Source of the DNA: Syntrophorhabdaceae bacterium
Lineage (GTDB): Bacteria > Desulfobacterota > Syntrophorhabdia > Syntrophorhabdales > Syntrophorhabdaceae
Direction: 5' to 3'
Assembly (NCBI GenBank): GCA_963665295.1
Contig: OY762209.1
Location: forward strand, 4,672,001-4,736,000
Length of the DNA stretch: 64,000 nucleotides
Part shown: piece after piece, positions 44,174-61,803 of the stretch
Layout of the letters: each line of letters starts with the position of its first letter
Position numbering within the stretch: the stretch's first letter is position 1
Notes under the pieces: generated by a model
Databases searched by the model: none
Told to the model about the DNA's origin: nothing
The model's input: only the letters and a program-made list of their open reading frames with translations
Made by a program: the position numbers and the translations under genes

Positions 44174-44577
44174 TATGTATGGGACTCAATTTGGTCCTTT
44201 ATTGTATCATAAGACGGTTTAAAAAGAAATATTTTCTTCGTTTTGGTCGCTTATTAGTTCTATTTGTCACAAACATAGGTCATAATACCCTTTTTTTGCC
44301 TCATGGTCATCGGGTTCAATCTTTGATATGTGAAAATATGCACAGCCTGTTTTGGCAAAAGTCACATAATAACCGATTCACGATTGAACGAACCATTATG
44401 GCCGATGCAATGGGTAAAAAAACCGTTAAAAGAGAATGGCAGGTCTAGGCCGCGCACAGGGCCTTGTGCCCGACTTTTTTGTCGCACCTCCCTTCCCGGA
44501 ACGACAAAAATGTGGGCGCCTCAAGGCGGCCACTTTTGTTTACCGCATTATTTCAATGTCTTACATGGCAGATCGAG

Positions 44578-44792: not shown

Positions 44793-45054
44793 TGTGGGGG
44801 ATCGACCGGCATAGCGCCTGCAAACGCCTGCCGGTCCCATGTCTCCTTATTCCTTTTTCCCGTACATCGACAATTGACGATCACCGGGGATTGTTCAAAA
44901 TGCCAGGATAACTAAAATGTGAGGAAAGGGCCCGGGATTGGGCCTGTTACGCCCTACCTGCTATCCAAGAAGGCGGGTAGCTTCTGCGGGGCCACAAACA
45001 ACCTCGTAATGGATGGATGCGAAGGTCAGGACCCGGATCGATCTGCCCCATATA

Positions 45055-46668
45055 TTACAGGCTTGCATAGATCTTCAACTGCTGCCGCGGATAAATCTGT
45101 GCCTTTTCAATGTTGTTCCACCTCATCACGTCCTTCGGGTATACATTGAACTTGTCCGATATCCCCGCCAGACTGTCACCTTTCTTTACCATGTATATAA
45201 GGGGCTTCTTCGCCTGAGTCCGGTAGACCGTGAGCGTCCGGCCTTCTCTTATGTCCAGTCCGTTCTTCAACCCGTTTCCTGCAATCACGTCCTTGGGCCT
45301 AACCCTGAAGCTCTGGCATATCTCCGTTATCGTATCCCCTTTCTTCACCTTGTAGACTACCGTATCCATAGCAACGGGCGGATATACCTTCAGTTTCTGC
45401 CCCAACACGACCCTCTGGTCCTTCATTTTGTTCCACTTCCTGATATCGTCCTTATCCACCTGGAACATGTCCGCCACCGTGGAAAGGCTATTGTTCTTCT
45501 TAACAACATAGATGAGGGGTTTTACCTCGGGCGTCTTTGTTCTTGCCGACGCCGCCACGCCTTTTCCTTTACTCACACCCTTGTGGACCGCTTCCGGAGA
45601 CCGGCGAGGCTCCCCCGCCCCCATGTCAGGCTCCGGCGACCTGTAACCGGCGAAAGCGGCGCTGATCTCAAGGATTTCATTTTGGTTTTCAAACCTTCGG
45701 AACCCGAACACCTCGGGATTGCTCCCAATCACTGCGGCAGCGATGACCTTGGGAGGATATTCCCTCGTTTCCTTTGCAAGACAGGTGCGAATGTGCCAGA
45801 AAGTTCTTTCTTCCATGGGATTGTCTATCCGTTTGAGGCACGATATGATCCTCCCTTCGCCGCAGTTATAGGCGGCGAGAGCAAGAAGAAAAGACCTCGG
45901 ACCGAAGATGGCGATCAGGTCGTGAAAGTATTCGACAGCGGCAAAGGTTGATTTTACCGGGTCCAGCCTGTCGTCAACACGGTCGGACACGCGAAGCGAA
46001 TACCTTTTGGCCGTACCCGACATGAACTGCCACATACCTACGGCCCCTGCATGGCTGCGGGCATTGGGGTTGAAACCCGATTCAAGGAACGCGATAAATG
46101 CCATGTCTTCCGGTATGTTCCTCTTTTTGAAGACCTCCTTCACGGCAGGCATATATCCTGCCGACCTTCTAAGGGAACTGTTCATGAACCGCCTGTACTG
46201 GTCGTTCGTCTGAAAGGCCTTCACGTAGAGCTTCACCTCGTTGAGAAAAACCGTTTCCACTTTATCGTCCTTTTCTCCGAACTCGCCGAGAAGCCGCTTA
46301 AGTTCCCGCTCAATCAGAGCGTCATGGCCCACCGTGGTGGCCCTGCCCAGGGAGCGTTCGTCAATCTGAATGCGGGGAAGGTCCCGGAAAGGGATATTGT
46401 CTTCCCTGCCGGCGAGGCCCGTCTGACTGCTCTTCCCATTGGCCACAGTCCTTTCCCCGGCAGGGCGGGCCATATCTTCCACACTGATCCTGTTCTCGCC
46501 CTGGCCGGAAGATACGGGACCCTTCAGTGCGTCTTCATGGGCCGACGCGACGGGCGCCTCACGCCTCCCCTGAACGCCGCTTACATAGGACATGGAGGTG
46601 CATGAGGCGCAGAGAACCACGAGTACTGCCGCGAAAGACAGCGTAATCACCTGTTTTGTTTTTTTCAT
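45055..46668 (-). CDS. MltD-like lytic transglycosylase lipoprotein with three LysM domains
   Basis: Lipobox-like CASC, LESGFNPNARSHAGAVGMWQFM, LAAYNCGEG, KETREYPPK, three LysM repeats. Confidence 0.9.
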   Translation of the reverse strand: MKKTKQVITLSFAAVLVVLCASCTSMSYVSGVQGRREAPVASAHEDALKGPVSSGQGENRISVEDMARPAGERTVANGKSSQTGLAGREDNIPFRDLPRIQIDERSLGRATTVGHDALIERELKRLLGEFGEKDDKVETVFLNEVKLYVKAFQTNDQYRRFMNSSLRRSAGYMPAVKEVFKKRNIPEDMAFIAFLESGFNPNARSHAGAVGMWQFMSGTAKRYSLRVSDRVDDRLDPVKSTFAAVEYFHDLIAIFGPRSFLLALAAYNCGEGRIISCLKRIDNPMEERTFWHIRTCLAKETREYPPKVIAAAVIGSNPEVFGFRRFENQNEILEISAAFAGYRSPEPDMGAGEPRRSPEAVHKGVSKGKGVAASARTKTPEVKPLIYVVKKNNSLSTVADMFQVDKDDIRKWNKMKDQRVVLGQKLKVYPPVAMDTVVYKVKKGDTITEICQSFRVRPKDVIAGNGLKNGLDIREGRTLTVYRTQAKKPLIYMVKKGDSLAGISDKFNVYPKDVMRWNNIEKAQIYPRQQLKIYASL

Positions 46669-46736
46669 CCGGACCTCCCGCCCGGTCGTTTTCTCCCGCG
46701 AGGGGGTGCAATTCGGCATATCGGGCTATATAATAA

Positions 46737-46761
46737 AGACGGATGTGGACACCGTTTTTCT
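46737..46761 (-). promoter_or_regulatory. Putative ECF promoter AGAA-N15-CCGTCT upstream of the mltD-like gene
   Basis: GAGAA AAACGGTGTCCACAT CCGTCT. Confidence 0.65.
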
Positions 46762-46781
46762 CACTCCCTTCCCCGGCTGGC

Positions 46782-48551
46782 CTACGGTGGGCCGCCGGTC
46801 CTGCCGTCAAGACCCGTGAGCGCCCTCGCGAGCACGTCTACAGCCATGGGGGCCGCCACTTCGCCCCCCTTGCCCTTGTTCTCTGCAATGACCGCAATGG
46901 CAAGGCGAGGATTACCGGCCGGGGCAAATCCGATGAACCACGAATGTGCCTTTTCGTCTCTTCCTGTCTCCGCCGTCCCGGTCTTTCCTGCCACGTGGAC
47001 TGCAACGGCACGGGGACCCGTTGGTTCCGTGGTATACCTTCCATTTTCGAAGTAGAGCTTCTTCACGTGTTTTCCCGTGCCTTCGAGCATAACCCTTTCC
47101 ATGAGGTTTCTCGCGGTTTTTGCGGTCGCCTCGCCTAGCGCCCTGTCCTTCATCACCACTGGACCGCCGGAGACCATCATTCTTTCCCCCCTTGCCGTCC
47201 TTATCTGACGCACCACATAGGGGTTCAGGACCCTGCCCCCGTTTGCCACGGTGGCCGCTACCATGGCCATCTGGAGCGGGGTCGCGGCTACAAGGTTCTG
47301 TCCTATGGAGCACTGGGCCACTATTCCCTTGTTCCTCGTAAAATCACGTTTCGTAAACGTGCGGAGCGTCTTCGTCCCCTCCTTGTTTTCATAGTAAGAG
47401 AAGGCAAGGCTCCTGGTGGCCTCGTATTTGTGTCCCTCTATCTGAGGGACCAGGTTCACGGGGTTGTTAAACCCCAACTTCACCGCATAGTCATACAACG
47501 CAGGCCCCATGGAAACCCCGATTTCACTGAAGAACGGATTGCATGACTGAATAAAGCCCTTTTCCAGGGTTACCGTGCCATGGCCGTGTTCTTTGTACTC
47601 GTCGGCAATATTATACTGATTCCTCCTTCCGTTGCAGAGGATGGAGAAATCCCGGCGCCCTTCATTTCCGTGGCCTGTATCGAGCCACGTAAGCATAACC
47701 ACGGTCTTGAAGGTGGACCCCAGGGGATAAAGCACGGAGAATGCCCTGTTTTCATAGAGCTTATCCTCCGTGTCCCTGACCACCCTGTCCCACATATGCC
47801 TGTCTCGGGTGTTGGGGTCATAGGAAGGGGCGCTCACCGCGGCGATCACCTCTCCTGTTTTTACGTCCATCACCACAATGGCGCCCTTCATTTTACCCAT
47901 GAGTTCGTAACCGTATCTCTGGAGTCCGCTGTCTATGGTGAGAAACACGTCGTCCCCGAGGACTATTCGCTTAAAAGGATTGCTCATGTCATGATATATG
48001 GGGTTATGTGCCCGTCCGGCCAGATAGGGATCCAACTCCTTCTCGAGGTTACGCACGCCGTAAACGGCATTAAAATGGCCTATGAGGGGAGAAAATTCCG
48101 GGCCGTAGGCATATTCCCTCTTCGTGGGAAAAAACTTGTCGTTAATCACCGTTTTGGTGAGAGGCACACCGCTGCGGTCAAAAAACGAGCCCCGCCATAC
48201 GATCTCCTCCTTCTTGGGGTTCGCCTTCGCGCAGAATTGAGTGTTGAACACCACCTTCCCGTCGGCCCCGAATAGTGCCCCCGAATTGATTGCCTGCCTG
48301 ACCTTTTCCGCCGTATCCCTGCTCAGCTTTCTCCGGCCCATGGCATCCTCGTCTATCCCTACCAGGCGACCGTTTACCACAAATACTCCATCACTCTCAA
48401 GGCCGGCCACGACCTCAACGAACCTCTTGTCTACGTACCGCGATGTAGCGTATTTCTTATTGTTGACGACCATACGGTCGAAAAGGAGGTATGCGACGAA
48501 AAGACCGCTGACGACCAATACGAGGGCAACGATCTTCATTCTGCCGTTCAT
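46782..48551 (-). CDS. Class B penicillin-binding transpeptidase, PbpA-like
   Basis: N-terminal TM; SxxK (GSTFK), SCN, KTGT motifs; IGQ..ATPLQMA. Confidence 0.9.
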   Translation of the reverse strand: MNGRMKIVALVLVVSGLFVAYLLFDRMVVNNKKYATSRYVDKRFVEVVAGLESDGVFVVNGRLVGIDEDAMGRRKLSRDTAEKVRQAINSGALFGADGKVVFNTQFCAKANPKKEEIVWRGSFFDRSGVPLTKTVINDKFFPTKREYAYGPEFSPLIGHFNAVYGVRNLEKELDPYLAGRAHNPIYHDMSNPFKRIVLGDDVFLTIDSGLQRYGYELMGKMKGAIVVMDVKTGEVIAAVSAPSYDPNTRDRHMWDRVVRDTEDKLYENRAFSVLYPLGSTFKTVVMLTWLDTGHGNEGRRDFSILCNGRRNQYNIADEYKEHGHGTVTLEKGFIQSCNPFFSEIGVSMGPALYDYAVKLGFNNPVNLVPQIEGHKYEATRSLAFSYYENKEGTKTLRTFTKRDFTRNKGIVAQCSIGQNLVAATPLQMAMVAATVANGGRVLNPYVVRQIRTARGERMMVSGGPVVMKDRALGEATAKTARNLMERVMLEGTGKHVKKLYFENGRYTTEPTGPRAVAVHVAGKTGTAETGRDEKAHSWFIGFAPAGNPRLAIAVIAENKGKGGEVAAPMAVDVLARALTGLDGRTGGPP

Positions 48552-49927
48552 CGTTCCTCCCCCGAAACCCGTATCGCTATTCCGGCCATTATGAAGCTTA
48601 TGACAATGGAACTGCCTCCGTAACTGCAGAAGGGCAGGGTAATTCCCGTGAGAGGGATTCCGTTCAGGTTTCCCGCGAGGATAATGAAGGACTGCACTGC
48701 GATCATGAGTGCGACGCCGACAGCGAGCATCCTCTTGTAGACATTGTTGTTCCTGAAGGCCCCGAGGATAATCCTGTGGAGTAGGACGGCGTATGCAAAG
48801 AGGAGGGAAAGACCCCCCATAAGACCCATTTCTTCACAGATAGCGGCAAAATTGAAATCGGACTGCACCTCAGGTATCCTGTGGGCAAGTCCGAAGCCGA
48901 TCCCATTCCCGAATATACCCCCTGTCGAGATGGACCACAAAACCGTTGTTATAGCCTCCCCTCTGCCGAAGGGATCGAGGAACATGTCTACCCTTTGCCT
49001 CAGGACGTGGGGAAAGTTCATCGTGTAACACGCCCAGCCCACGAAGGCAATGGCGGAAGCGACAAGGAGGGTAATATAGATCTTGTTACCTGCAAGGTGA
49101 AGCATTATAAAACAGACGACAAAGAGGAGGATGGTCGCCCCATAGTCGCCCTGGAGCACGGTCGGGCCTATTGCGAAGACGCATGCGAAGGCATAGGGAA
49201 TAGTATACCTGCACCACGTGAGGAACCTGCCCCTTCCATGAAAGGTAATCCCCTTCCCCTCGTTATAGAGGTACCCCGCAATAAAGAAGAGGACAAAAAG
49301 CTTTATGGGCTCTATCACCTGAAACCCGAAGAGCCAGAGTTTTCTTCCGTTTATGGTGGTGCCGAAAAACCATGTGACCGCAAAGAGCACCAATGAACAG
49401 ACTATCCACAGGTACCGTCTGCCGGACATCCAGGCGAAGAAAGATTTGCTGAAGACCTTTGTGGTAACTACGAGGGCGAGGACCCCCGCGGCGATATTCA
49501 CGAAGTGACTCGTTCCAAGTTGGGCGAGAGTTCGCACGTTGTCGGTCACCTTTGCCGAAGGGTTCGCGCCGACAATACCCTGCAAGGCATCGCTTCTCAT
49601 GATGGCAAGGTCGGGCGCCAGGCGGAGGATCATAATGAACCCTATGCCCGATATGAATGCCACGGTCGGCAGGACATAGGGGTCCGCCCCGGGGATGGCG
49701 ACCCTCAGATGAAAATGAGCCAACATGAATACGCTCACGAAAAGGGCAAAATAAAGGGCGTTCGGAATTGGGCTCAAGATGAGGGAGACAAGGTCCATGT
49801 CGCCGGATAGGGTTTTGACGGAAAAGGGCAAACCTCTCGTCACAAGGTGGTGGTGAAGGAGAAAGAACCCTAGCCCGAGGGACGTAAAGACCAGAAGAAG
49901 GTATTTCAGCTCAAGTGTGCGCCTCAT
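48548..49927 (-). CDS. SEDS peptidoglycan polymerase (RodA/FtsW family)
   Basis: Multi-TM; ADPYVLP, INGRKLW, QGDYG, SDFNFAAICEEMG, IPLTGITLPFCSYGGSS. Confidence 0.9.
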   Translation of the reverse strand: MRRTLELKYLLLVFTSLGLGFFLLHHHLVTRGLPFSVKTLSGDMDLVSLILSPIPNALYFALFVSVFMLAHFHLRVAIPGADPYVLPTVAFISGIGFIMILRLAPDLAIMRSDALQGIVGANPSAKVTDNVRTLAQLGTSHFVNIAAGVLALVVTTKVFSKSFFAWMSGRRYLWIVCSLVLFAVTWFFGTTINGRKLWLFGFQVIEPIKLFVLFFIAGYLYNEGKGITFHGRGRFLTWCRYTIPYAFACVFAIGPTVLQGDYGATILLFVVCFIMLHLAGNKIYITLLVASAIAFVGWACYTMNFPHVLRQRVDMFLDPFGRGEAITTVLWSISTGGIFGNGIGFGLAHRIPEVQSDFNFAAICEEMGLMGGLSLLFAYAVLLHRIILGAFRNNNVYKRMLAVGVALMIAVQSFIILAGNLNGIPLTGITLPFCSYGGSSIVISFIMAGIAIRVSGEER

Positions 49928-49953
49928 TGCTCTCCTTATTGTTTTATATAGGT

Positions 49954-49978
49954 AGACGGATAAACCCCGAAAACTTCT
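49954..49978 (-). promoter_or_regulatory. Putative ECF promoter upstream of rodA-pbpA
   Basis: AAGAA GTTTTCGGGGTTTAT CCGTCT. Confidence 0.65.
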
Positions 49979-50057
49979 TGGTCCCGTGTCTCTTTTTCAG
50001 CCGGATTCAAAGGAAATGTGAAGGAATTGCGTGTTACGTCCCGGGTGGGATTTCTCT

Positions 50058-52010
50058 TTAGCGCTCCTGACCGGTCATGGTTCCGCCGTAGTCATGTCCC
50101 AGTCTCGCCGCTATGCCGAAATCGGAGTCAGCCTCCATATGCCTGCCGAGCTTGTGATAGCAAGCACCCCGCCACCGGTAATCGACGTTGTTGGGCCGGA
50201 GCCTGATGGCATTGGTGAAATCATCGGCGGCCATGTAATAGTTGTTCAGCCGGAAATAGGTCACTCCCCGCCAGTGAAAATAGATATCCGCCGGTCTCAG
50301 CCTGATGGCATTGGTGAAATCCTTGAGGGCCCCCGGATAGCTGCCGACCCTGTAATACGCCACGCCCCGCCAGTAATAGCTCAACTCGTGGGAGGGGTTC
50401 AACTCAAGGGCACGGGAAAACTCGGCCACCGCTTGGAGAAACTGTTTATGTTTCAGGGATCGAAGGCCCTTCTGGTAATAATAGTCGGCCGAGGACCGCG
50501 GAGAGACCGGTGGCCTCCCTTCGTTCAGGGCCTGCGGTGCGGGCGCCGGTGCGACGGCGGTCTCCTGTTTCGTTTGTGTCTCTCGCGGCCCGGGCTCCGG
50601 TTCTTTCGGCTGCCACGGGACAGGCGCGGGCATCTCCGCTTTGCTTTCCTTTTCCGCGAAGCTGGTTGGGGGTGCGGGAGTAATCCTCACCGGGGTTTCG
50701 AGTTTCTTTATATTCATTGACCGGTGCGGAGCCGCGGCAGCCTTGGGCGGCGTCGCCGGTTTCGCTTTAGCGGAAGGTACTGGCGGAAGAGTCGGCTTTG
50801 CCTGTTCGACTGCCCGTTTTTCCTTTTCGGCAGCATCCCTCGCTTTCCCGGCTTCCTCCTCCTTCCTCGCGTCGGCATCCCTTTGCGCCTCTTTGCGCTT
50901 CTGTTCCAGATCCTGCCTTTCTTTCGCTTCCTTCTCCCGCTGCGTCACCATTGCCGTATGATATCGGCCAGTGTCGGGCTGCCAGTTCCGGTATACCACG
51001 TAACCGGCGGCCGCACCTGCGAGGACAAGGAAGACTATCACCGCACAGGTGACCACCTTGAATCCTTTCCTTCCTTCCGGCTCCCCCGCCTTCTCCCGAG
51101 CGGGTCCCGCCCCCCGGGTGGTCCCGCCATGGCTCGGTTCATTTTCCACTTCTCTCCTGAGATCGTCGGAAAGGGCCTTGATACTCTGATAACGCTGCTC
51201 GACCCTCGGAGCCACCGCCTTCTTGTAGATGCTGTCCATACCCTTTGGAGCGGACCGGTTAAGCTCGCTCGGGCAAAACGGTCCTATGGTGCTGTCCAGC
51301 GTAAAAAGTTCATAGAGGACCACGCCTGTTGAGTATATATCCGTCCGATGGTCCACCTCGGGACTGCCGGACTTCAGTTCGGGAGACATGTAGGGGGATA
51401 CGCCGAAAGGGGTACTCACGGCAGTAAGGTCCCGGAGGTTGAGTATCTTCGCAATCCCGAAATCGGCCAGCTTAACCGAAAGGGTCGCCTCGTCGGTAAC
51501 AAGGATATTTTCCGGTTTTATATCCCGATGTATCACCTTCTCCTTGTGGTCATGGGCGTAGGTGAGGGCAGCGGCGATCTGGGAAATAACCCTCAGGGCC
51601 TCTTCGGCGCTAAAGGGATTGTTGATCTTTCTCCTGTCGTTTATGAGGTCCCTGAGATTTCTCCCTTCGACCCATTCCATAAGAAGGTAGTGCCATACAA
51701 CCCCGTTCTCGTCTTCCCACTGGTCGTCATGATAGATCCTGACGATGTTCGGGTGGTGCAACACATCACGGGAAATGGACGCTTCGTGCTGGAATCGCTC
51801 TATCGCGTCCTTCGAGTCCAGGAGCCGTGGCTGCATAAGCTTGAGGGCGACGTCCCTCAACCTCGAATGCCTCGTATCCCTGCATTTGTAGACCATCCCC
51901 ATACCGCCCATCTTGCCTTCCGACAAAATCTCGTAACGGTTGTGTATCAGGGTGCCTACAGGGAATAAGCCCTTAAAACCCTGGTCTTCTTTTATCGCAG
52001 TGGGCGCCAT
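50058..52010 (-). CDS. Membrane Hanks-type Ser/Thr kinase with coiled-coil/Pro-rich linker and C-terminal TPRs
   Basis: GGMGMVY, VALK, HRDIKPEN, DFG, YMSPE, DIYSTG; TM helix; TPRs (FTNAIRLRP repeats). Confidence 0.92.
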   Translation of the reverse strand: MAPTAIKEDQGFKGLFPVGTLIHNRYEILSEGKMGGMGMVYKCRDTRHSRLRDVALKLMQPRLLDSKDAIERFQHEASISRDVLHHPNIVRIYHDDQWEDENGVVWHYLLMEWVEGRNLRDLINDRRKINNPFSAEEALRVISQIAAALTYAHDHKEKVIHRDIKPENILVTDEATLSVKLADFGIAKILNLRDLTAVSTPFGVSPYMSPELKSGSPEVDHRTDIYSTGVVLYELFTLDSTIGPFCPSELNRSAPKGMDSIYKKAVAPRVEQRYQSIKALSDDLRREVENEPSHGGTTRGAGPAREKAGEPEGRKGFKVVTCAVIVFLVLAGAAAGYVVYRNWQPDTGRYHTAMVTQREKEAKERQDLEQKRKEAQRDADARKEEEAGKARDAAEKEKRAVEQAKPTLPPVPSAKAKPATPPKAAAAPHRSMNIKKLETPVRITPAPPTSFAEKESKAEMPAPVPWQPKEPEPGPRETQTKQETAVAPAPAPQALNEGRPPVSPRSSADYYYQKGLRSLKHKQFLQAVAEFSRALELNPSHELSYYWRGVAYYRVGSYPGALKDFTNAIRLRPADIYFHWRGVTYFRLNNYYMAADDFTNAIRLRPNNVDYRWRGACYHKLGRHMEADSDFGIAARLGHDYGGTMTGQER

Positions 52011-52028
52011 ATGGTCTCTTTGATGATA

Positions 52029-52823
52029 TCACAAACTCAACCCCTTGTGGAGCATAAACCTTCGTTTCATGCCGGAGAAGAGCCGGGAAAAGGGTCCGGG
52101 CGCCTCCACCACGATGACGGAAACATTGTCGGGCGCGCCCCTCAGAAGTGCCATATTGACGAGGACCTTGCACTTCTCTTCCGGGCCGATCTCTTTCACA
52201 AGCACCTCCCTCGCCTCGTCCGGGCTCACCACACGGAAAAGGCCGTCGGAGGAAAGGAGGTAGATATCCCCGTCCTTCACCAAATGGGCGCTCAAATCGG
52301 GTGTCGTGTTTTCAGACGATCCAAGGGCCCTTGTGAGAACGTGGCTCAGGCTATGGTTTTCCTCCTTTTCGGGGTCAAGGACGCCCGCCTTCACGAGGTC
52401 CCGCGCTTCGGTATGATCTTCGGTGAGTTTCTCCATGCATTTTCTTCTCAGGCGGTATATGCGGCTATCTCCTATGTGGGCGATATAGAGCTTGCCGTTG
52501 GTAAAATGGGCGGAGGAAAAGGTCGTACCCATGACCTCGCCCCTGGCATACTCGTATATCTCCCGGTTGGCAGTAGATACGGCCTCCCTGATGATGCTCA
52601 GCACGGGCTCATCCTGCTTGAGCGACTCGTTGTCATAGGAGGTGATATTCTGATGGATCACCGCGGTGACGGTGGTCACTGCCTTTCTGCTCGCCACTTC
52701 TCCCTTTGCATGTCCGCCCATGCCGTCGGCCACGACATAAAGCATGATCCCATGGTCCAGGACAATGGCGTCCTGGTTCATCTCCCTCTCGACGCCCCTG
52801 TCCGTTATGCCGAAAGCGTCCAT
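52029..52823 (-). CDS. PP2C-family Ser/Thr phosphatase (PstP/Stp1-like)
   Basis: REMNQD, VADGMGGH, MGTT, HIGDSRIY, SSDGL, DNVSV. Confidence 0.93.
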   Translation of the reverse strand: MDAFGITDRGVEREMNQDAIVLDHGIMLYVVADGMGGHAKGEVASRKAVTTVTAVIHQNITSYDNESLKQDEPVLSIIREAVSTANREIYEYARGEVMGTTFSSAHFTNGKLYIAHIGDSRIYRLRRKCMEKLTEDHTEARDLVKAGVLDPEKEENHSLSHVLTRALGSSENTTPDLSAHLVKDGDIYLLSSDGLFRVVSPDEAREVLVKEIGPEEKCKVLVNMALLRGAPDNVSVIVVEAPGPFSRLFSGMKRRFMLHKGLSL

Positions 52824-52826
52824 GGC

Positions 52827-53228
52827 CTAGTTGCTCTCCACTTTCATGGAATAGTCGCAAAACCCTATTTCGTCCCCCGGCATGAGTTCAAATTCCGGGG
52901 AGGTCATCCTCCGGTTCTTCGTCACCGGTTGCCCTGAAAGACTCCTGAAGAAGAGTGTGTTCGTTGCGAGGAGTTCGCCCGCCACTACAGGTATTCCCGC
53001 GCCTTCGAGAAGGATGTCACACTCGTTGCCCCTGCCGATGCGGTACCGGCCCTTCCCTACAGGTATTCTCCGGAACAATACCCCGCCTTTCCGGACGCTC
53101 AGGAAAAGTTCTGCCCTTTTTAACGGCGAAGGCCTTCGCACCGAACCGGCGAAGAGCAGGAGGGCAACAAAACCCAGGGACGATGAAAACACCAGGTTGA
53201 GAAGCATTATCTCCTTCGGGGAAAACAT
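52827..53228 (-). CDS. Membrane-anchored FHA protein (FhaB-like), degenerate
   Basis: N-terminal TM then IGRGNECDILL...LMPGDEIGF; SxxH absent. Confidence 0.7.
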   Translation of the reverse strand: MFSPKEIMLLNLVFSSSLGFVALLLFAGSVRRPSPLKRAELFLSVRKGGVLFRRIPVGKGRYRIGRGNECDILLEGAGIPVVAGELLATNTLFFRSLSGQPVTKNRRMTSPEFELMPGDEIGFCDYSMKVESN

Positions 53229-53229
53229 G

Positions 53230-54075
53230 TTACGCCACCCTGAGAAGCGTCTTTCCGGCTCTTATGGTATCCCCCTTGGTCAAAGATGCCTCGGCTATTT
53301 CTATATCATTGAGAAAGGTCTTGTTCTTCCCGCCAAGGTCGCGGATCTTCGCGAGGTCCTTGGCTACCACAACCTTGAAGTGTTTCCGCGAGATAAACTC
53401 CTCCGGGTCATTGAGGAGGACATCCGCGTCTCTGGCCCTTCCAAATACATATTCCCCTTCTTTCAGTGCCAGTTTTATCCCTTTATCCTGACCTTCTATC
53501 ACCTCGAGGTTGACGACTGGAATTTCAAGGCATTTCGTGACCCGCTCCTCCCTGGCGACAGTCTCTCTTTCCTCGATCACCTTGGTCCCCTTACCCGCAA
53601 ACATGCCGGGGATAGGCTCCTTGTCTTTCGGTTCCGTGACCTTGTGAGGTGTGGAAAAAATACCCATGGGGGCCCCCGGTTCGGGGAGCTTGAACAGGTC
53701 GGCCGGGCTCTCTTTCACTTCGAGAAAGGAGGATTTGATGACGAGCTGGTTCCTGAGAAGGCTTTCGTCCTTCCGTATATCGATATAGAGAGACGGGGAG
53801 AGGATGGTGTACTTCTTCTTTTTGATCCTGTCCAGCACCTTGTGTTTCAGCTGTTCCCCCGCGTGGGCAAGAAAGGGTGATATGTCTTCGTAATCAAAAG
53901 GGTTGAGGTAGAGCGTATACCGGTTGGGCACCAGAAACTTGCGGTCAAATCCGCCCATCTTTCTGTCTTCCATGCTCCTAAGGAGCCTGTCCAGTATGTC
54001 TCTTGGTTGAAGGTCTTTCTGCTTTGCGCCGAAGAGGCGGGCAAGCGCTTTCTTGATGCTCCTCATTAAACTCAT
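53230..54075 (-). CDS. FhaA-like protein (DUF3662-like N-terminus plus FHA)
   Basis: LQPRDILDRLLRSMED..LVPNRYTLYLNPFDY; FHA motifs FGRARDAD..ISRKH..KNKTFLN. Confidence 0.85.
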   Translation of the reverse strand: MSLMRSIKKALARLFGAKQKDLQPRDILDRLLRSMEDRKMGGFDRKFLVPNRYTLYLNPFDYEDISPFLAHAGEQLKHKVLDRIKKKKYTILSPSLYIDIRKDESLLRNQLVIKSSFLEVKESPADLFKLPEPGAPMGIFSTPHKVTEPKDKEPIPGMFAGKGTKVIEERETVAREERVTKCLEIPVVNLEVIEGQDKGIKLALKEGEYVFGRARDADVLLNDPEEFISRKHFKVVVAKDLAKIRDLGGKNKTFLNDIEIAEASLTKGDTIRAGKTLLRVA

Positions 54076-54115
54076 GGTCTCCTCCTCCTGTCTCGAATAT
54101 TGACTCTGTTATATA

Positions 54116-54140
54116 AGACGGAAGGAGGACCGGCTTTTCT
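54116..54140 (-). promoter_or_regulatory. Putative ECF promoter upstream of fhaA
   Basis: AAGAA AAGCCGGTCCTCCTT CCGTCT. Confidence 0.65.
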
Positions 54141-54202
54141 TACGCGATCTCTCGTAAATTCAGGGCGGTCGGGAATCCCGCTGCACACCTTGTCCGGACC
54201 TT

Positions 54203-54631
54203 CTACTTCTCCGGGTCGTCGGCCCCCTCTTTCTTGCTTTTGCCTTTCTTCGGTCTCGTAATGTCTCTCGGGACGGCCGCGTATGCCATGGGGGTGGGGG
54301 TGGATTCGCCGGAGGCGCTCCCCGTCTTCCTTGCGGGCCGCTCCAGGGGTCTTATCTTTCTGTCTCCGGCCCCTTCGCCTCCGGCTTCCCTGAGCATTTC
54401 CTCGATGCCCGGAGGCAGGTGGCGAACCTTCTTTTCGTCGAAAGATTTCATGTGCTCGTCAAGGCTTTCGAGGAGCCTCTTTCCTTCCCTGTAGCCGGGG
54501 AGCACTTTTCGATACACCGCCAGTTCGCGAATCGCCTCGCTGCATTCCCTGCAGGCGCCTATATGCATCTTTGCTTCCTCGCCGGCATTTCCTTCGAGGA
54601 ATCTCAAGAGGTCTTCATCATTACATTTCAT
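54203..54631 (-). CDS. Soluble zinc-binding anti-sigma factor (ZAS-like)
   Basis: KCNDEDLLRFLEG..HIGACREC (HxxxCxxC); follows the sigma gene; no TM. Confidence 0.75.
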   Translation of the reverse strand: MKCNDEDLLRFLEGNAGEEAKMHIGACRECSEAIRELAVYRKVLPGYREGKRLLESLDEHMKSFDEKKVRHLPPGIEEMLREAGGEGAGDRKIRPLERPARKTGSASGESTPTPMAYAAVPRDITRPKKGKSKKEGADDPEK

Positions 54632-54642
54632 CTCTTTCTCCT

Positions 54643-55224
54643 TTAAATGGACTCGCTCAAGCTTTTCAGTTCGCCCATAGTGGCAAGCTTCTTCAGGCAG
54701 TTCACGATGTTCCCGTATATGGTCTTCGAGTTTTTCTTAAGCACGTTGGCCAGTTCCTCGTAAGTTCCGTATACACCCTCAAGGTATTGCAGATAACCGT
54801 TGATAAGCTCCTTGCATTTTTCGGGGAGCTTGTTGACTGCGTCTCTTACCCGGGAGGCGACATCGATCATATAGAGGACATCGATGAGGTTCCTGTCGTC
54901 CGCGATGGCCGCCTGGTCGTCGATGGAGACGACAATCGTCTGGGGATGATTTCTCCGGTAATGATTGGTTATCTCATTTCTCAAGACCCATTGGGCATAA
55001 CCCCTTATTTCCCTTATTTCCTCGATGTCCCGCCGGTGGACCCTCTTGATCAGGGCGGCGATCGCCTCGGCCGATATATCCTCCACTTCTTCATCCGAGA
55101 GACGCCATTCCTTCCACCTGCATGCCTTAAGGAATTTGTTGTACATATAGGTCCACGCGCCCCGGTCGTTCCTCTTCAGTTCTTCGTACAGCTTTTCGCT
55201 TTCCATGGACTCATATTCTTTCAT
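54643..55224 (-). CDS. ECF-type RNA polymerase sigma factor
   Basis: Region 2 DRGAW..EEVEDISAEAI..YAQWVLRNEITNHYRR; region 4 AVNKLPEKCKELI..YEELANVL; start ATG 55224. Confidence 0.85.
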   Translation of the reverse strand: MKEYESMESEKLYEELKRNDRGAWTYMYNKFLKACRWKEWRLSDEEVEDISAEAIAALIKRVHRRDIEEIREIRGYAQWVLRNEITNHYRRNHPQTIVVSIDDQAAIADDRNLIDVLYMIDVASRVRDAVNKLPEKCKELINGYLQYLEGVYGTYEELANVLKKNSKTIYGNIVNCLKKLATMGELKSLSESI

Positions 55225-55268
55225 ACCCGGTCCCCCCGGTTGGGCTTGTCGGCCATTTATCCCCCTCT

Positions 55269-56087
55269 CTAAAATATTCTGTCTCCCTGCCGGGAGTTCT
55301 CCATAATCTTCTTCCTCGCCCATTTCTCCATGTCGCCCTGAATGAGGTCGTAGTCCAGGCAAAGTTCGAAAAGGGCGTCCCTCATCTCCCGTTTGCCCGC
55401 TTCCCTCAGGAGGGCATTTACTTTCTCCCACCCGTAGAGGGGACTATTTACCATGCATTCCACTACGCATGCCGCCTCGGCATAGGCGAGCCTTCTCCCC
55501 GCTTCCGTCTCCATGACCAGATTCCCCGGCCTTTCAAGCTCTTCGAGGAGAAGAACCGGCCCCCTCTCCCCCATCGCCTCCCGAAGGGCATCGAGATAGG
55601 AGTCGGGAAGCTCCTGGGAAAGATAGACGCTTAAACCTTCGTCCAGCCAGAACGGGCAGCGGCCCCGTCCTATTTCGTGGACCGCGAGGTGTATGATTTC
55701 GTGGGTGAGGTAGATGTAAAACGACTGTGTTTCTTCCTCGTCGTCCTCCTCCGATACGATAGTTATCTCCCCGTCAAAGAAACCCGCCGCCCACGAACCG
55801 CAGGCGTTCTTGCGATCGCCTTCACGGAGCGCCTCTTCGCCGGACCGGTAGACGTTTACCCTGATATCGGTAAGTTCGTGTCCGAGTTTGTCGCGTACTA
55901 TCTTCTGCGTCCTCTTTATCGTCCGGAACAGGTTGATAATATCGAGTTTCTCGTGCTTCAAATGAAAATTGACCCTTATTCCGTGCTGGGTCAACCGCAC
56001 AAGGTCGTCTTCTCCGATATAGGTAGACCTGTTTTCCTGACGGACGATCGATTTGACTTTTCTGAAGATTCTTTCCTCTTCGTCCAT
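55269..56087 (-). CDS. Cytoplasmic zinc metallopeptidase (MA clan, gluzincin-like)
   Basis: THEIIH (HExxH) followed by PFWLDEGLSVY; no signal peptide. Confidence 0.8.
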   Translation of the reverse strand: MDEEERIFRKVKSIVRQENRSTYIGEDDLVRLTQHGIRVNFHLKHEKLDIINLFRTIKRTQKIVRDKLGHELTDIRVNVYRSGEEALREGDRKNACGSWAAGFFDGEITIVSEEDDEEETQSFYIYLTHEIIHLAVHEIGRGRCPFWLDEGLSVYLSQELPDSYLDALREAMGERGPVLLLEELERPGNLVMETEAGRRLAYAEAACVVECMVNSPLYGWEKVNALLREAGKREMRDALFELCLDYDLIQGDMEKWARKKIMENSRQGDRIF

Positions 56088-56161
56088 TACATATCTCCGT
56101 GTTTCACCTGCAAGACCCTGTCATCCGGCACCTCACGCCGGACTTACCCCACGTCCCACGG

Positions 56162-57373
56162 TCAGCCGAATAATCCCCGCTTAACCTCACTTATGTCTTT
56201 GAAGCGCTTTTCTCTTTCCTTTTCGATGCACCTGCCTATCACCCGACTCATGGTCTCCGGAAAAGGGGCGACCATTTCGCGCGTTATCCCGTCGCCTTCT
56301 ACCCTGCCCCCCAGCATTTCGTAGAATACGACACCCAGAGAGTAAATATCGTCCCTCTCGTCCACATCATTGAAGTCCTCCCGCTGCTGTGGCGACGTAT
56401 AGGGTACATTATAGCCCCGGAAGCCGGGGGGCGGCATAAAACCGCCGGTCTTGTCCAGTGCCAGCCCGAAGTCTATGATTTTCAGGCCTACGGGCGAAGA
56501 TGAATGGTCGACCATGATATTCCTCGGGTTGATGTCCCTGTGTATCACGCGCTCCTTGTGGATGTATTCGAGGGCGCTCAATATAAGACGGGCCGTTTCC
56601 CTGAACCGGCCAATGCCGTAAGGCGTTTTCCGGATCACATCATAGAGGGACCCGCCCTCGATATACTCGAGCACGATGTAATAGTCGCCATCTGCGACGC
56701 CGTAATCGAACCCCTTTACCACGTTCGGGTGGTCGAACCTTTCCGTGAGGAGCTTTCCCTCGTTCCGGAAGAGGGCGGTCAACGTCTTCGCTGTCGCATA
56801 CCGCTCGAGCTTTTCGAGCATGAGGTACTTGAAGGCCACCGGCCTGCTGTCCGAGCGCCTCATCCCCTTCAGTATCCGCGCCATCCCGCCCTTGCCTATC
56901 TCCATATCAAAGACCACATATTTCTCGTCGAAGGCACCGGGTTTCTCTTTGGACTTATCGTAGACGGTCCTTAACCGCCCGATCGCTTCATAAAGCTTCA
57001 CCTCTTCCCCGGGGGTCAGCTTCGGGTCGTAATACGCGGTAGGATCATGGTCAAGAAGCTTTCTGAACCCGAGCTTATTCGTAACCCGCCGGAGCTTGTT
57101 GCGGACCGACTGATCCTTTTCGCCGCGCCAGAGGTCCTTTACTAAAATCTCATCCACTTCTTTCCCATCATCGATGAGTTTAAGGAGGTGGACTGCCGCG
57201 TCCTCGCGCAGTTCGGGGTCGGCATTGGTCCTTATGATCTCGTAGCAGGCCTCGGGTAACGCGGCCACGGGGACGACCGACGCCGATGCAACTACCCGCT
57301 CAGCCGGGTCAAGGAGTTTCGTTTCGTTCTCCCCCGCAACCCTGTCCTTTTCCCTGAAAGATCCTTCTGTCAC
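56162..57373 (-). CDS. Soluble Ser/Thr kinase with helical (HEAT-like) N-terminus
   Basis: GKGGMARI, VAFK, HRDINPRN, DFG, DIYSLG; no TM. Confidence 0.88.
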   Translation of the reverse strand: MTEGSFREKDRVAGENETKLLDPAERVVASASVVPVAALPEACYEIIRTNADPELREDAAVHLLKLIDDGKEVDEILVKDLWRGEKDQSVRNKLRRVTNKLGFRKLLDHDPTAYYDPKLTPGEEVKLYEAIGRLRTVYDKSKEKPGAFDEKYVVFDMEIGKGGMARILKGMRRSDSRPVAFKYLMLEKLERYATAKTLTALFRNEGKLLTERFDHPNVVKGFDYGVADGDYYIVLEYIEGGSLYDVIRKTPYGIGRFRETARLILSALEYIHKERVIHRDINPRNIMVDHSSSPVGLKIIDFGLALDKTGGFMPPPGFRGYNVPYTSPQQREDFNDVDERDDIYSLGVVFYEMLGGRVEGDGITREMVAPFPETMSRVIGRCIEKEREKRFKDISEVKRGLFG

Positions 57374-57389
57374 GCCCGTCTCTCCACGC

Positions 57390-58733
57390 TCAATTCTGCT
57401 CCATTACCCTGCCCGAGCATTTCGGGCACCTGTACATGGCTGCCCGGTCCCCGGCTTTTACGCTGAAGGCGGTATTGCAGCCTGGATTCACGCACCTGAG
57501 TGTCACGAAATCATCGTCCCGGCTTTCCTCCGCCGCGTCCCTTTTTCCGGGCGACGAAGGCTCCCCGTAGATGGTCCCCGCTTCCGGCGCGGCCTGCCCC
57601 GTCGGGACTCCTGTAGCCCTCGGGAGGCCGGCTTCAATCTCCTTTTCTCTGAGTCTCATTTCGAGTTGTTCTTTTTCCCTGAAGAGCTCGTTCTCAATGG
57701 CGTCCCGGTCCTTTTTCTTCTTGAGCTCGATTAAAGCCCCCATGGCCTTCAGGTTGCTTTCCTCTTTGAGACCGGTCATTTCTATCTCCGCAAGGTTTTT
57801 CACCTTTTGATCGGCTATTTCGTTTTCGAGACGCAACCTCTCTATCCCCGCCTCCACCTCGATCACCGCGTACCTCGCTTCCGCGACCTCACGGTCAATC
57901 CCCGCCTTTCCCAGGAGCTTCCTCCGTTCGTAGTCAAGTTCCTGGTCAAGCTCCAGTTTGCGGATTATCCAATCCCTTTTCGTCTTGCGGTCCATGTCCC
58001 GCTCTTCGAGGGCCGCTTTCAGGTCTTCAAGTTCCCGGCTTCTGAGGAGCTTCGCCTTTTCCTCTTCGAGGAGGTACTCCTCGATCTTATCGTCGGACAG
58101 AGACAGGTCTCCGAGGAGAGAAAGGGTCTTACGTCTCATGAGAATCCTTTTCTCAAGCTCCTTCGCTTCCACCTCGTCCATCTCGTTGCGGATGAACCCC
58201 TTTTCCTCCGCATCGATCACACCGGAATAATTCCTGAAGTCGTACTCCACCGACTTCAACTCGTTAAGGTAAAGCCCCGCTGCGTCGAGGGTATTCTTCA
58301 GGTAATGTTCCACCCGCACCTCGAATTCCTTCCTCAGCCCGGAGCCGGCGCCATCACTCTCAAGCTCTTTTATGGATCTCTTGCCCAGCATGTCGCGAAA
58401 TGCATTGTACACCCCTTCCCGGAGGAAATCATGCAACTCATTCGTCCCCGGGGCGTCCTCCCCGTGTGCGACATGCTCGAGGAACCGGTCCCGTTTCACG
58501 ACAAGAACCACAATGCGGACGGTTACATCTATCTTTACCGGGTCCACGGTGCGCACATCTTCGAGGTGAAACGTAAGGGGTATGAGTTCTCCCGCGTATT
58601 CCTCCCCGGCGACAAAGTCCTCCCTCACCAGTCCTACATCGACACGGAGTACGGACCGGCAGTTGCTGCAATACCGCGCTTCCCGGTCTACCTTCACCCC
58701 GCACCGGGGGCAACGTTCCGCCTCTTCTCTCAT
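57390..58733 (-). CDS. Zinc-ribbon/SPFH(band 7)-like/coiled-coil protein
   Basis: CPRC..YCSNC, SPFH-like core (LKNTLDAAGLYLNEL), long coiled coil, C-terminal CVNPGC..CPKC. Confidence 0.65.
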   Translation of the reverse strand: MREEAERCPRCGVKVDREARYCSNCRSVLRVDVGLVREDFVAGEEYAGELIPLTFHLEDVRTVDPVKIDVTVRIVVLVVKRDRFLEHVAHGEDAPGTNELHDFLREGVYNAFRDMLGKRSIKELESDGAGSGLRKEFEVRVEHYLKNTLDAAGLYLNELKSVEYDFRNYSGVIDAEEKGFIRNEMDEVEAKELEKRILMRRKTLSLLGDLSLSDDKIEEYLLEEEKAKLLRSRELEDLKAALEERDMDRKTKRDWIIRKLELDQELDYERRKLLGKAGIDREVAEARYAVIEVEAGIERLRLENEIADQKVKNLAEIEMTGLKEESNLKAMGALIELKKKKDRDAIENELFREKEQLEMRLREKEIEAGLPRATGVPTGQAAPEAGTIYGEPSSPGKRDAAEESRDDDFVTLRCVNPGCNTAFSVKAGDRAAMYRCPKCSGRVMEQN

Positions 58734-58810
58734 GTTCTCACGTTCCGTGCAAAACGGGGCATTTCCCTCTGTCCACGACACCTCTCCAGCCCATGGCATT
58801 TCATCTACTC

Positions 58811-59809
58811 CTAATATTGTACTCTTCTCAGCTTCAAGTCGCCATCCACTTTTAGTACTCCTGCCCTTAAAGCGCCTATTTCCGGGCCCACATCGTCCGG
58901 ACAGGGCGATGATGCCATGCGGCAAATCCTTTCGGACAAACGCTCCAGGTCTTCCAGCTTCCAGAATATTTCCATGTCAAAACACACGGCGCCGGAAGAC
59001 CCGCGCCGACTGTCCAAACCCGCGCCGCCGGGGGGAGCCTTCGCCACGGAACGCTTCATTTCCATGAGGTTTCTCTCTATGTCCTTAAGCTCCACCGCGA
59101 CCCTGGTCTGTCCCGTTTCCACGAGCCTCGATTTCGCCTCCGACACGTGAACAATGATCTTGTCGATCTCTCCTGTCACACCTTTCCTGTTACCCCCGAC
59201 TCCTTCGAAAATCCTCGCCCCTCCGCTTCGTCTTCCACGCTTCAAATTAAGGAAAAGGAGGAGACAGAGGACAAGGAGAAGCGCCGCGGCCGGTATGCCC
59301 CAGATCACATACTTTCTCAAGGGCGATACAGCAGAGACCTCGAAATCCCGGGACAGGACTATTTCACCTTTTTCCACGTCCACAAGCTTTACATGAGCCT
59401 TTACATGGTATGACATAAACCCCGCCCGGGAGCGGTATACGTCACCCGTGAGAAATCCCTGGACCCCTTTCAGCCTTCCGTGCCGGACCCTCGTATTTCC
59501 GTCCATAATGTCCTTGAGCTGAAGACCCTGCTCCGCGAGGACCCTGTCAAAGTCCGCCCGCTCCATGACCTTGCAGGATGTCCTTTCTTTAATGGCGGAT
59601 ACTATCCCGTTCTTCACCATATTGTTGTCGCCCTTGAAATCGAGTACTGCCATGCGGCTCATCTTCCTGTCAACAGGCAATGCCTTCACCACTGCTTCCT
59701 GAAGGCTGTTCATGGCCTGTGACTGGAGGGTCTCCGCAAGACAGGAGGAATACCAGATAAAGGCCATAACCGCGCCCGCGAGAATGCCTATAACCGCGTG
59801 TCTTCTCAT
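58811..59809 (-). CDS. CsgG/HfaB-like exported domain, TM helix and cytoplasmic helical domain
   Basis: Signal peptide, MAVLDFKG, VMERADFDRVLAEQGL, GRLKGVQGFLTG, VKLVDVEKGEIV; TM WGIPAAALLLVLCLLLF. Confidence 0.7.
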   Translation of the reverse strand: MRRHAVIGILAGAVMAFIWYSSCLAETLQSQAMNSLQEAVVKALPVDRKMSRMAVLDFKGDNNMVKNGIVSAIKERTSCKVMERADFDRVLAEQGLQLKDIMDGNTRVRHGRLKGVQGFLTGDVYRSRAGFMSYHVKAHVKLVDVEKGEIVLSRDFEVSAVSPLRKYVIWGIPAAALLLVLCLLLFLNLKRGRRSGGARIFEGVGGNRKGVTGEIDKIIVHVSEAKSRLVETGQTRVAVELKDIERNLMEMKRSVAKAPPGGAGLDSRRGSSGAVCFDMEIFWKLEDLERLSERICRMASSPCPDDVGPEIGALRAGVLKVDGDLKLRRVQY

Positions 59810-59941
59810 GTCAACACCCTCCCGGACCATATGACGGGTCTTCGCCGCAAATCCGCCATAGAATTAGATGATAAGTAAAACGGAATACAAAAACAATCAA
59901 ATACGAAAAACCGTTGCTCTGCCCCGCACAAAGGTATGTAT

Positions 59942-60874
59942 TCATTTTTTCTTCTGCCCTCCCGAAAGGGATTTCATCGTTTTCGACGCGAGGATTGCCG
60001 ACGCCTTTCCTATGGCGTCCGTTCCTGATTTCTTCTCGTTGCTCCCGAAACCCAGCACATCCCTTACCGCGAACGATCCCGCCCCTCCACGAGCTTTATA
60101 CACGCGGATTGTCCCTTCGGCCCGCGAGGAATATATCTGTCTCGTCTCCTCGCTGAACACGGCTCCTACCCTTCCTTCAACTACGGCGCTTACGAGAAAA
60201 TAGACGAGAAACCGGTCCACAGCCTCGGCATCGCCGGAATGGAGAGCAGGCAGAACACCTCCCGAATGGCCGTCGGTCAACGCTCCCGGATCCACCCTCC
60301 CGTATCCCTTCTTGATTGCCAGGGATGCAAGGTGACGGTCCAGGGTTCGGCTGTCGGATGGTTTCCCGTCCCACCTGTCCGACGTAATTATGATCACCCG
60401 TTTTGCGAGAGGAAGTCCCCTGATAAGAATGTCCTCCGCACGGTCCCTTGCGAGCTTTGTCTTCATAAAGACCGTATACAGGTCCGGTTCGGGCTGCTGT
60501 TCGCCCGTTATCTCTGTTTCCGTGAGAATAGAACCCTTTTTCGGTATGAGGATCCTGAGAACCGTTTCCTTTTCCCGGGAGAGCACCACCGGATGAATCA
60601 ACGGTCGTACCGCTTCGATAAGGGCATTCCGTTGTGCATCTTCCACGGCTCTCACCCGCGCATGGGGTCCGTTTTCCCCCTGCCTCACCCGCGCTTTCCC
60701 TTCGACGGTGACCGTTTCAGGAACCAGATGGGAACCTCCGGGACTCTGAACAAAAACCTCTTGCCCGACGTTCGCCCGGCACAGGGCAAAATAACCGGTA
60801 CACAGGAATAAGGCCACCGTCAGAATAACCCGGAACCTCAATCCCTTACTTCTTGATTTCTCGTCCATGCTCAC
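59942..60874 (-). CDS. Exported protein with FlgT-N/LPP20-like domain
   Basis: Signal/TM, VTVEGKA..ARVRAVEDAQRNALIEAV. Confidence 0.6.
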   Translation of the reverse strand: MSMDEKSRSKGLRFRVILTVALFLCTGYFALCRANVGQEVFVQSPGGSHLVPETVTVEGKARVRQGENGPHARVRAVEDAQRNALIEAVRPLIHPVVLSREKETVLRILIPKKGSILTETEITGEQQPEPDLYTVFMKTKLARDRAEDILIRGLPLAKRVIIITSDRWDGKPSDSRTLDRHLASLAIKKGYGRVDPGALTDGHSGGVLPALHSGDAEAVDRFLVYFLVSAVVEGRVGAVFSEETRQIYSSRAEGTIRVYKARGGAGSFAVRDVLGFGSNEKKSGTDAIGKASAILASKTMKSLSGGQKKK

Positions 60875-60966
60875 GCCCTTTGAAGTCTTTATGGATATCC
60901 GCGGAGGCGCCTGAGGGTCGGCAACCCCATCGCCCCTTTCCTCCGGAACTTCCGCTCTTAATGAGA

Positions 60967-60991
60967 AGACGGTTTAGTCCCCTGTTTTTCT
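60967..60991 (-). promoter_or_regulatory. Putative ECF promoter at the head of the operon that contains the sigma gene
   Basis: GAGAA AAACAGGGGACTAAA CCGTCT. Confidence 0.65.
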
Positions 60992-61098
60992 CGAATTATT
61001 CTTTGATTGGTGGTTACAGCTTTGAACAGAAGAAAAGGTGTGGAAAATTCCCCAATGATGCTTATAGTCTTTATAAAACCACGAAGGAGGCGTTCAAA

Positions 61099-61284
61099 AT
61101 GAGAGTGAAGATATTTACCGGCAACGGCATCGTGCGCGATTTGGAGAATGAAATCAACCAGTGGTTATCCACGAACCCGGTCAAGGTGGTCGACATAAAG
61201 CAAAGCTACACCTGCGACAGCAAGTCCTGTTACGCCATGATGTCGGTCTGGTTTGAGAGCACCGAGAATATCAACGAGATATAG
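61099..61284 (+). CDS. 61-aa protein, Cse60-like
   Basis: RBS AAGGAGG; MRVKIF..LENEINQWL..VVDIKQS. Confidence 0.7.
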   Translation: MRVKIFTGNGIVRDLENEINQWLSTNPVKVVDIKQSYTCDSKSCYAMMSVWFESTENINEI

Positions 61285-61343
61285 AGAACGGACATGTACA
61301 AGCTGCCCGGGACGGTTCCCCGTCTCCGGGCGGCTTGTACCGG

Positions 61344-61718: not shown

Positions 61719-61803
61719 TAATGGGGCCTGCGACAACCCGTGCCGTCGGCAAGACCGGCAAACCCTTTTTCTTTTCCACCGGCTTGCGCCGTTTTCTTCC
61801 TGG

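Follow-up and report, generated by a model that had tools for sequence, protein, structure and literature searches.

What transcribes a gene cluster that carries a sigma factor of its own? The question is raised by a 64,000-nucleotide stretch of DNA, here called the window, from a Syntrophorhabdaceae bacterium (genome G000; contig OY762209.1, positions 4,672,001 to 4,736,000), in which a minus-strand cluster falls into four units, each preceded by the motif AGAA-N15-CCGTCT. The first unit encodes a FlgT-like protein, a CsgG-like protein, a zinc-ribbon protein, a kinase, a peptidase, a sigma factor of the extracytoplasmic function (ECF) type and a 142-amino-acid protein. The second encodes FhaA, an FHA-like protein, a PP2C phosphatase and a kinase with a TPR domain, the third a SEDS glycosyltransferase and a class B penicillin-binding protein (PBP), and the fourth an MltD-like lytic transglycosylase. 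Our reading, with a probability of about 0.88 on sequence comparison, is that the motif is a promoter, with -35 and -10 elements, that the ECF sigma of the cluster itself reads, and that the four units form one local regulon. In relatives a change of the cluster sigma goes with a change in the motif's upstream half, and the motif is therefore very likely that sigma's promoter. Sites with AGAA, GCATAAA and GWAAGAA as the upstream half are referred to as classes A, B and C.

All four 25-mers reported in the initial annotation were recovered, on the minus strand, intergenic and with identical spacing. They lie at 60967..60991, before the unit running from the flgT-like gene to the 142-amino-acid protein (predicted promoter 1); at 54116..54140, before fhaA and the genes for the FHA-like membrane protein, PP2C and kinase-TPR protein (predicted promoter 2); at 49954..49978, before the SEDS and class B PBP pair (predicted promoter 3); and at 46737..46761, before the lytic transglycosylase-LysM gene (predicted promoter 4). 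There was no further exact match in the window, and in 100 shuffled windows the mean was 0.13 matches and the maximum 2, four never being reached. Each site is non-palindromic, points at its gene and is followed by A/T-rich DNA, as had been noted for all four. From the end of the site to the start codon there are 26 nucleotides (nt) for SEDS, 40 nt for fhaA, 92 nt for the flgT-like gene and 68 nt for mltD, the last counted from a likely start at 46668. A variant with a 16-nt spacer precedes moeA (44212..44237, minus strand), but it is a doubtful member as it has no counterpart before the moeA orthologue of G001, a genome of the same genus.

Over the whole genome the exact pattern has 23 matches, against 13, 26, 14, 19 and 10 with spacers of 13, 14, 16, 17 and 18 nt; it is thus not enriched relative to neighbouring spacers and gives no support for a large global regulon. 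This lack of enrichment, together with the fact that the pattern was picked after the sites were seen, is what could be said for four chance matches, or for functionless relics of duplicated intergenic DNA. On the other side, four of the 23 matches lie on one strand within 14.3 kb, which only 16 of 200,000 random placements achieved, a figure that, like the counts, rests on the pattern having been picked afterwards. The spacers of the four sites are mutually unrelated, which does not fit duplicated relics. The expectation that the motif should be commoner here than in other DNA is consequently borne out locally, through clustering, and not for the exact pattern across the genome. The signal is a local one, and both the clustering and the conservation in relatives are non-random.

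That conservation is best seen in G001, whose sigma is 74% identical to that of the window. Five sites of the form AGAA-N15-YCGTCT were found there, before the flgT-like gene, fhaA, SEDS, a second fhaA and mltD, so that all four orthologous units have one. The mltD orthologue (66% identical) is on another contig and still has its site, and upstream of SEDS the motif is kept in the two genomes though the flanking DNA no longer aligns. A matrix built from the five G001 sites alone, and run over both strands of the 5.5-Mb window genome, placed the window sites at ranks 1 (predicted promoter 1), 2, 10 and 14, with most of the other top-25 matches inside crude open reading frame (ORF) calls. With the motif kept where flanks have diverged, and equivalent sites before orthologues on separate contigs, chance or relics are highly improbable.

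The evidence that assigns the motif to a particular sigma comes from more distant relatives. The sigmas of G003 (same genus) and G022 are only ~30% identical to that of the window, while their SEDS, PBP and mltD products are 43-50% identical. In these two genomes and in G301 the sites read GCATAAA where the window has AGAA, before the same genes; the fhaA orthologues of G003 and G022 have theirs at the place of predicted promoter 2. The pattern GCATAAA-N13/14-YYGTCY was fixed from three sites and then searched through whole genomes. Of its five matches in G003, two had been seen before; two others were new and lie, on other contigs, ahead of the orthologues of fhaA and mltD, and the fifth stands before the gene for a small exported protein. 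With a looser -10 a further site appeared directly before the G003 sigma, and G022 has six sites of this class: one each ahead of sigma, fhaA, a second fhaA, the units of SEDS and of mltD, and a unit that the contig end cuts off. On contig C55 of G022 (L070:8480-8716) two divergent class B promoters stand back to back, with TTTATTGCATAAA common to both strands.

A third class was found in family f17, where the module comprises an FHA-peptidase, the sigma, its partner, kinases, fhaA, SEDS and PBP. GWAAGAA sites stand directly before the sigma in 4/4 genomes and before fhaA in 3/4. In the 5.0 Mb of G353 there are three matches, before the sigma, fhaA and a glycine-zipper lipoprotein gene, and in G108, of the same genus with no match to the sigma, there are none. 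In G492, G493 and G503 several of the genome-wide matches are inside genes, and control counts in G493 were similar. In f17 a class C site stands immediately ahead of the sigma start, downstream of the FHA-peptidase gene, and that gene is itself preceded in four loci (L074, L096, L097 and L098, of G353, G493, G492 and G503) by TGnTATAA, which resembles an extended housekeeping -10. G301 is an f17 genome, yet GCATAAA precedes its sigma; the host family alone thus does not set the class of the site.

This co-variation bears directly on the possibility that another sigma of the genome, ECF-like or SigH-like, reads the sites. CGTC-type -10 elements are widespread among ECF promoters, and those of DdvS of Myxococcus xanthus have CGT; further ECF-like sigmas are encoded in the genome, and no site stands directly before the window sigma. 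Nevertheless, G000 and G003 belong to one genus and still have different upstream halves, a difference that follows the cluster sigma, and G301 does not share its family's class. The candidate upstream of the intact ECF gene at C1:4899487 is a different one, TGTAAC-N16-CGACT, and the ECF gene at C1:1004062-1004526 is broken by one TAG. We regard another sigma as unlikely. A SigH-like sigma gene (C1:3151871-3152353) has a long leader, perhaps a regulatory RNA.

When the upstream regions were tabulated, 28 of 31 in nine genomes carried the class matching their sigma, with one cross-match; among 4,655 crude ORF starts the three class patterns occurred 18, 0 and 6 times. Several points weigh against our reading here. 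Three regions lack their class: those of the sigma gene in G000, the sigma gene in G001 and fhaA in G503. The class patterns were largely written after sites had been seen, start positions were hand-picked and the nine genomes count for only some three to four independent lineages, so that 28/31 is a strong pattern, not a formal statistic. The table also omits G392, G134, a second sigma copy in G493, the second fhaA of G003 and a Nitrospinota locus. An exact match is missing from all of these: the G003 gene has a site only if one mismatch is allowed, no class A, B or C site precedes the sigma of G392 or that of G134 (for which there are just 75 nt of upstream sequence), and the intergenic DNA of the Nitrospinota locus has none either, though its helix NTVSVQIKR predicted class C. 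That locus was the only one found in a genome-wide scan with one Nitrospinota protein; in it (L153:7295-13136) FHA-peptidase, sigma, partner and kinase directly follow a probable integrase gene.

Is the protein at 54643..55224 (minus strand, 193 amino acids) a sigma of the right kind? It scores 60.5 bits against TIGR02937 (cut-off 42.9), and although Pfam finds region 2 only in this single sequence, the family profile spans regions 2 and 4 of SigW/RpoE-type chains. The last helix of the family aligns gap-free to GTVRSRIFR of RpoE-type sigmas and reads KTIYGNIVN in the window. In Escherichia coli RpoE, R176 reads the -35 G (PMC1540707, accessible part). At the equivalent position 27 of 34 family members have Arg and three have Lys, with Asn or Thr in four window-type sequences; a conserved first G of the upstream half is present in classes B and C and absent from the window class. 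Sigmas of the Arg-176 type thus go with a conserved upstream G, and the window type, with Asn, does not. In this comparative sense the promoter elements appear to follow the recognition residues of the sigma. Outside position 176 there is no simple residue-to-base code, and the bases found with Ser171 are not the same in class B as in class C, points that again count against the correspondence. In a tree of 13 sigmas three of ten inner branches were strongly supported, and the tree fixes neither its root nor the position of G301. The window-type sigmas form a long branch inside a well-supported group with G003 and G022, which suggests that AGAA is the derived state.

The clade to which this sigma belongs is divergent and patchily distributed. 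In its class it was found in 4/96 genomes, many of them incomplete drafts, with the cluster PBP in the same four and FhaA_N in those four and G085. Relatives bear the label Syntrophorhabdaceae in one source. A profile search gave 14 representatives at E<=1e-30. Across the phylum there were matches in 15/401 genomes at E<=1e-20, of which six at E<=1e-37 were treated as members and nine weaker ones set aside; two further families had the sigma in 5/35 and 2/52 genomes. A metagenome scan gave only two weak, short matches, with 24% and 33% identity. In the accessible part of the supplement to the ECF classification (PMC7826278) 'FHA' and 'transpeptidase' do not occur, and none of 25 of its 27 'protein kinase' passages fits the clade. 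A literature search, outside which most subscription papers lay, found no description of the clade, its promoters or its module.

The claim that this sigma transcribes all four units, its own operon included, is supported. Class co-variation, co-occurrence and the matrix ranks make this sigma the best candidate, and for its own operon the case is indirect. A site lies directly before the sigma in seven of nine genomes, G000 and G001 being the two without, so that autoregulation in the window rests on promoter 1 serving the first gene of an apparent 6.7-kb operon. Here the 111-nt A/T-rich gap between the flgT-like and csgG-like genes is a difficulty, as transcripts would have to read through it. 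If that unit is one transcript, the sigma would amplify itself from 60967..60991.

A different kind of explanation is that the sites bind a regulator that is not a sigma, or are A/T-rich housekeeping sigma-70 promoters with a common flank, and TATA-like stretches do follow each CCGTCT. Yet the sites are non-palindromic and gene-directed, and none of 17 sigma-70-like matches in 43000-62000 overlaps any of the four. Pfam and NCBIfam searches of the cluster recognised no DNA-binding protein besides the sigma. The geometry, AGAA-n16-CGT, equals that of the four mapped promoters of DdvS, GTAA-n16-CGT, which lie within one locus (PMC6061681, accessible part). We consider a regulator or sigma-70 less likely still than another sigma. 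Taken with what is established on ECF regulons that act locally and on promoter specificity guided by residues (bioRxiv 10.1101/2020.06.23.168245; PMC10028731; both in part), the DdvS geometry places a promoter read by the cluster's own sigma in a kind of system that is already known.

The likeness to DdvS and its anti-sigma DdvA extends to four promoters in one locus and a zinc-type anti-sigma domain, to which the profile of the 142-amino-acid protein gave a weak match (E 0.054). The differences are that the -35 is GTAA there and AGAA here, that the candidate anti-sigma here is soluble and without a CHAT domain, and that the predicted targets here are cell-wall and phosphorylation genes and not CRISPR-Cas or CBASS. 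No molecule named DdvS was among 20 structure matches of the sigma profile. A DdvS/DdvA-like or CHAT-linked system was rejected for the window, there being no CHAT or caspase-like protease in its cluster. In the loci of relatives CHAT or caspase-like (C14) proteins recur, as do FGE-sulfatase, OmpA-TPR, DUF4384 and PQQ-propeller domains, neither set being in the window cluster (L009:4573-8088, L070:2503-3957, L091:7658-9184, L105:4256-6322, L092:7467-9323 and L102:11349-15314). Adjoining the cluster on contig C51 of G003 (L007:238-4473) there is a second, conventional ECF with a zf-HC2 anti-sigma and a VIT-vWA gene, the last with a canonical GGAACTT...GTCTAA site upstream.

The regulon is very likely larger than four units, to judge from two further sites past the end of the window and at least one further fhaA-like unit. 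The fifth unit (C1:4735698-4739483) ends inside the window, at 63698-64000. It has a site at C1:4739442 (matrix rank 6), 3.4 kb past the window end, before the gene for an exported Trp-rich protein of 269 amino acids whose tail is a Gln/His repeat and which has no match in Pfam. Next come a further fhaA, which has an N16 site of its own, and the zinc-ribbon double-FHA gene that ends in the window. Two distant intergenic matches with A/T-rich tails, left out of this count, precede a subtilase gene (C1:5150832, rank 17) and a BON-domain gene (C1:1634358, outside the top 25).

The genes of the cluster, all on the minus strand, suggest what such a regulon would do. In the first unit an exported protein (59942..60874) has no Pfam match and was called FlgT_N-like from a look-alike search only, in which Atlas neighbours at 0.91-0.93 carry that domain. 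It is followed by a protein with a CsgG-like exported domain and a second membrane segment (58811..59830; Pfam and membrane-segment prediction), a zinc-ribbon and coiled-coil protein (57390..58925), whose same-position counterpart in G003 matches Band_7/SPFH, and a soluble Ser/Thr kinase-like protein (56162..57373) with an atypical catalytic loop. The loop reads HRDINPRN in G000, HRDINPKN in G001 and the usual HRDIKPGN in the G003 orthologue; the lineage that lost the catalytic-loop Lys is also the one with the diverged sigma. The peptidase MA-like protein (55269..56087) has HEIIH and WLDEG motifs, no membrane segment and a Pfam match at E 3e-6, below cut-off; in relatives it is fused to FHA. 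The sigma and the 142-amino-acid protein (54203..54631) complete the unit. FhaA (53230..54075), with FhaA_N and FHA domains in Pfam, opens the second, with a small membrane-anchored FHA-like protein in the FhaB position (52827..53228; a membrane segment and a weak Yop-YscD_cpl match, E 0.0013), a PP2C-type Ser/Thr phosphatase from domain search (52029..52823) and a membrane Ser/Thr kinase with a C-terminal TPR domain (50058..52010; Pfam and membrane-segment prediction). The accessory SEDS glycosyltransferase (48548..49927; Pfam) is paired with an accessory class B PBP (46782..48551) that has a transpeptidase and a PbpA-type dimer domain and retains STFK, SCN and KTG motifs. Last comes the MltD-like lytic transglycosylase with three LysM domains (45055..46719).

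The 142-amino-acid protein is the candidate anti-sigma. It has no Pfam or NCBIfam match itself, but some of its homologues match zf-HC2 and 23 of 28 have HxxxCxxC. Against structures its profile matches 3HUG chain B, which we take to be RslA, at E 6e-5, ChrR at 0.018 and RsiW at 0.035. The model has a helical N-terminus (pLDDT 79-88 over residues 1-40) and a disordered tail with an A-x-x-x-D-x-T motif (T125). Its HxxxCxxC motif, helical N-terminal domain and place beside the sigma are those of zinc-binding anti-sigma factors, and it may bind and inhibit the sigma. As there is no membrane segment it would be unable to sense outside signals alone. The D-x-T motif is kept in 27/28 homologues, the remaining row looking frameshifted; the Nitrospinota homologue, against the proposed role of the Thr, has Ala in its place. 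In most loci the gene immediately upstream of the sigma encodes a protease, either a peptidase MA, which is FHA-fused in f17, G392 and the Nitrospinota locus, or, in G022, a TPR-CHAT protein; G301 shows no protease gene in this position, and the G134 contig starts too close to show any gene before the sigma.

In mycobacteria PknB phosphorylates the zinc-type anti-sigmas of SigH/RshA and SigE/RseA, releasing or degrading them (PMC4601284; PMC7826278; accessible parts), and phosphorylation there of a single Thr is a precedent for a release step. The difference is that here the genes for kinase, FHA proteins and peptidase sit next to the sigma gene and belong to its predicted targets, and that phosphorylation is putative. 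ECF groups 43, 59, 61, 62, 217, 267 and 283 also have Ser/Thr kinases beside the sigma; as far as the accessible text goes they mostly have no anti-sigma, and ECF43 has Ser/Thr in place of the acidic DAED motif (PMC7826278). In contrast the window clade keeps that region-2 motif (of 34 sequences all have D49 and almost all E48) and is paired with a soluble zinc-type protein at +1, and the promoter motifs and hosts given in that text for these groups are not those of the clade. The kept acidic motif speaks against a sigma that is itself switched on by phosphorylation, and an ECF43-type sigma was rejected on this motif and the anti-sigma candidate at +1. From the mycobacterial precedent, the adjacent protease and the kept motif we infer a model in which the 142-amino-acid protein would hold the sigma inactive, a cluster kinase, on some presumed signal, would phosphorylate the conserved Thr of its tail, and FHA-guided cleavage by the adjacent peptidase (the CHAT protease in G022) would free the sigma. 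Phosphorylation followed by cleavage is a tentative guess by analogy, the one we prefer, and is the weakest step of the model.

The freed sigma would then transcribe the Ser/Thr phosphorylation module (two kinases, PP2C and FHA proteins) together with a lytic transglycosylase, a number of exported proteins and an additional peptidoglycan synthase of the SEDS-PBP type, the outcome being an inducible programme of envelope remodelling. The order of the actinobacterial locus is fhaA-fhaB-pstP-rodA-pbpA-pknA-pknB. The FhaA, FhaB-like, PP2C, SEDS, PbpA-type PBP and kinase genes of the window come in nearly the same order, but as a patchy accessory module in diderm anaerobes (4/96 class genomes), with a TPR in place of a PASTA sensor, a lytic transglycosylase, and a sigma and promoters of its own.

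An extra synthase may be of more than local interest in this host class. The division cluster of G000 (L152:2921-17579; C1:201921-216579) has, from order and sequence, ftsL, mur genes, ftsQ, ftsA and ftsZ. In the ftsI slot there is a membrane-anchored Pro-rich PASTA protein of 347 amino acids with no transpeptidase match, and in the ftsW slot a membrane protein of 261 amino acids with no Pfam match at E<=1. The only SEDS genes of G000 are rodA and that of the cluster, and the only class B PBPs are apparently MrdA and that of the cluster. Exactly one SEDS match was found in 53 of 58 class genomes that are at least 95% complete, and ftsZ is present in 40/41. The class may divide without canonical FtsW-FtsI, in which case any extra SEDS-PBP pair gains interest.

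In the window lineage the recognition helix of the sigma would have changed and the promoters of the whole regulon been rewritten from GCATAAA to AGAA. Put together, the picture would be of a phospho-proteolytic switch that turns on a full second peptidoglycan kit, in a host whose FtsW and FtsI slots are degenerate and in which every promoter has been rewritten; that all of this holds jointly is distinctly doubtful. What the locus probably offers is an assignment, made through sequence swaps found in nature, of a promoter and a regulon to an ECF clade of which no description was found, and a case of a whole regulon rewired within one genus. Its three natural sigma-promoter pairs, with sigmas ~20-37% identical between classes, would be material for a -35 recognition code. 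For the biology of these anaerobic diderms, it would mean that an actinobacterial-looking kinase-FHA-SEDS-PBP module is tied to an inducible switch.

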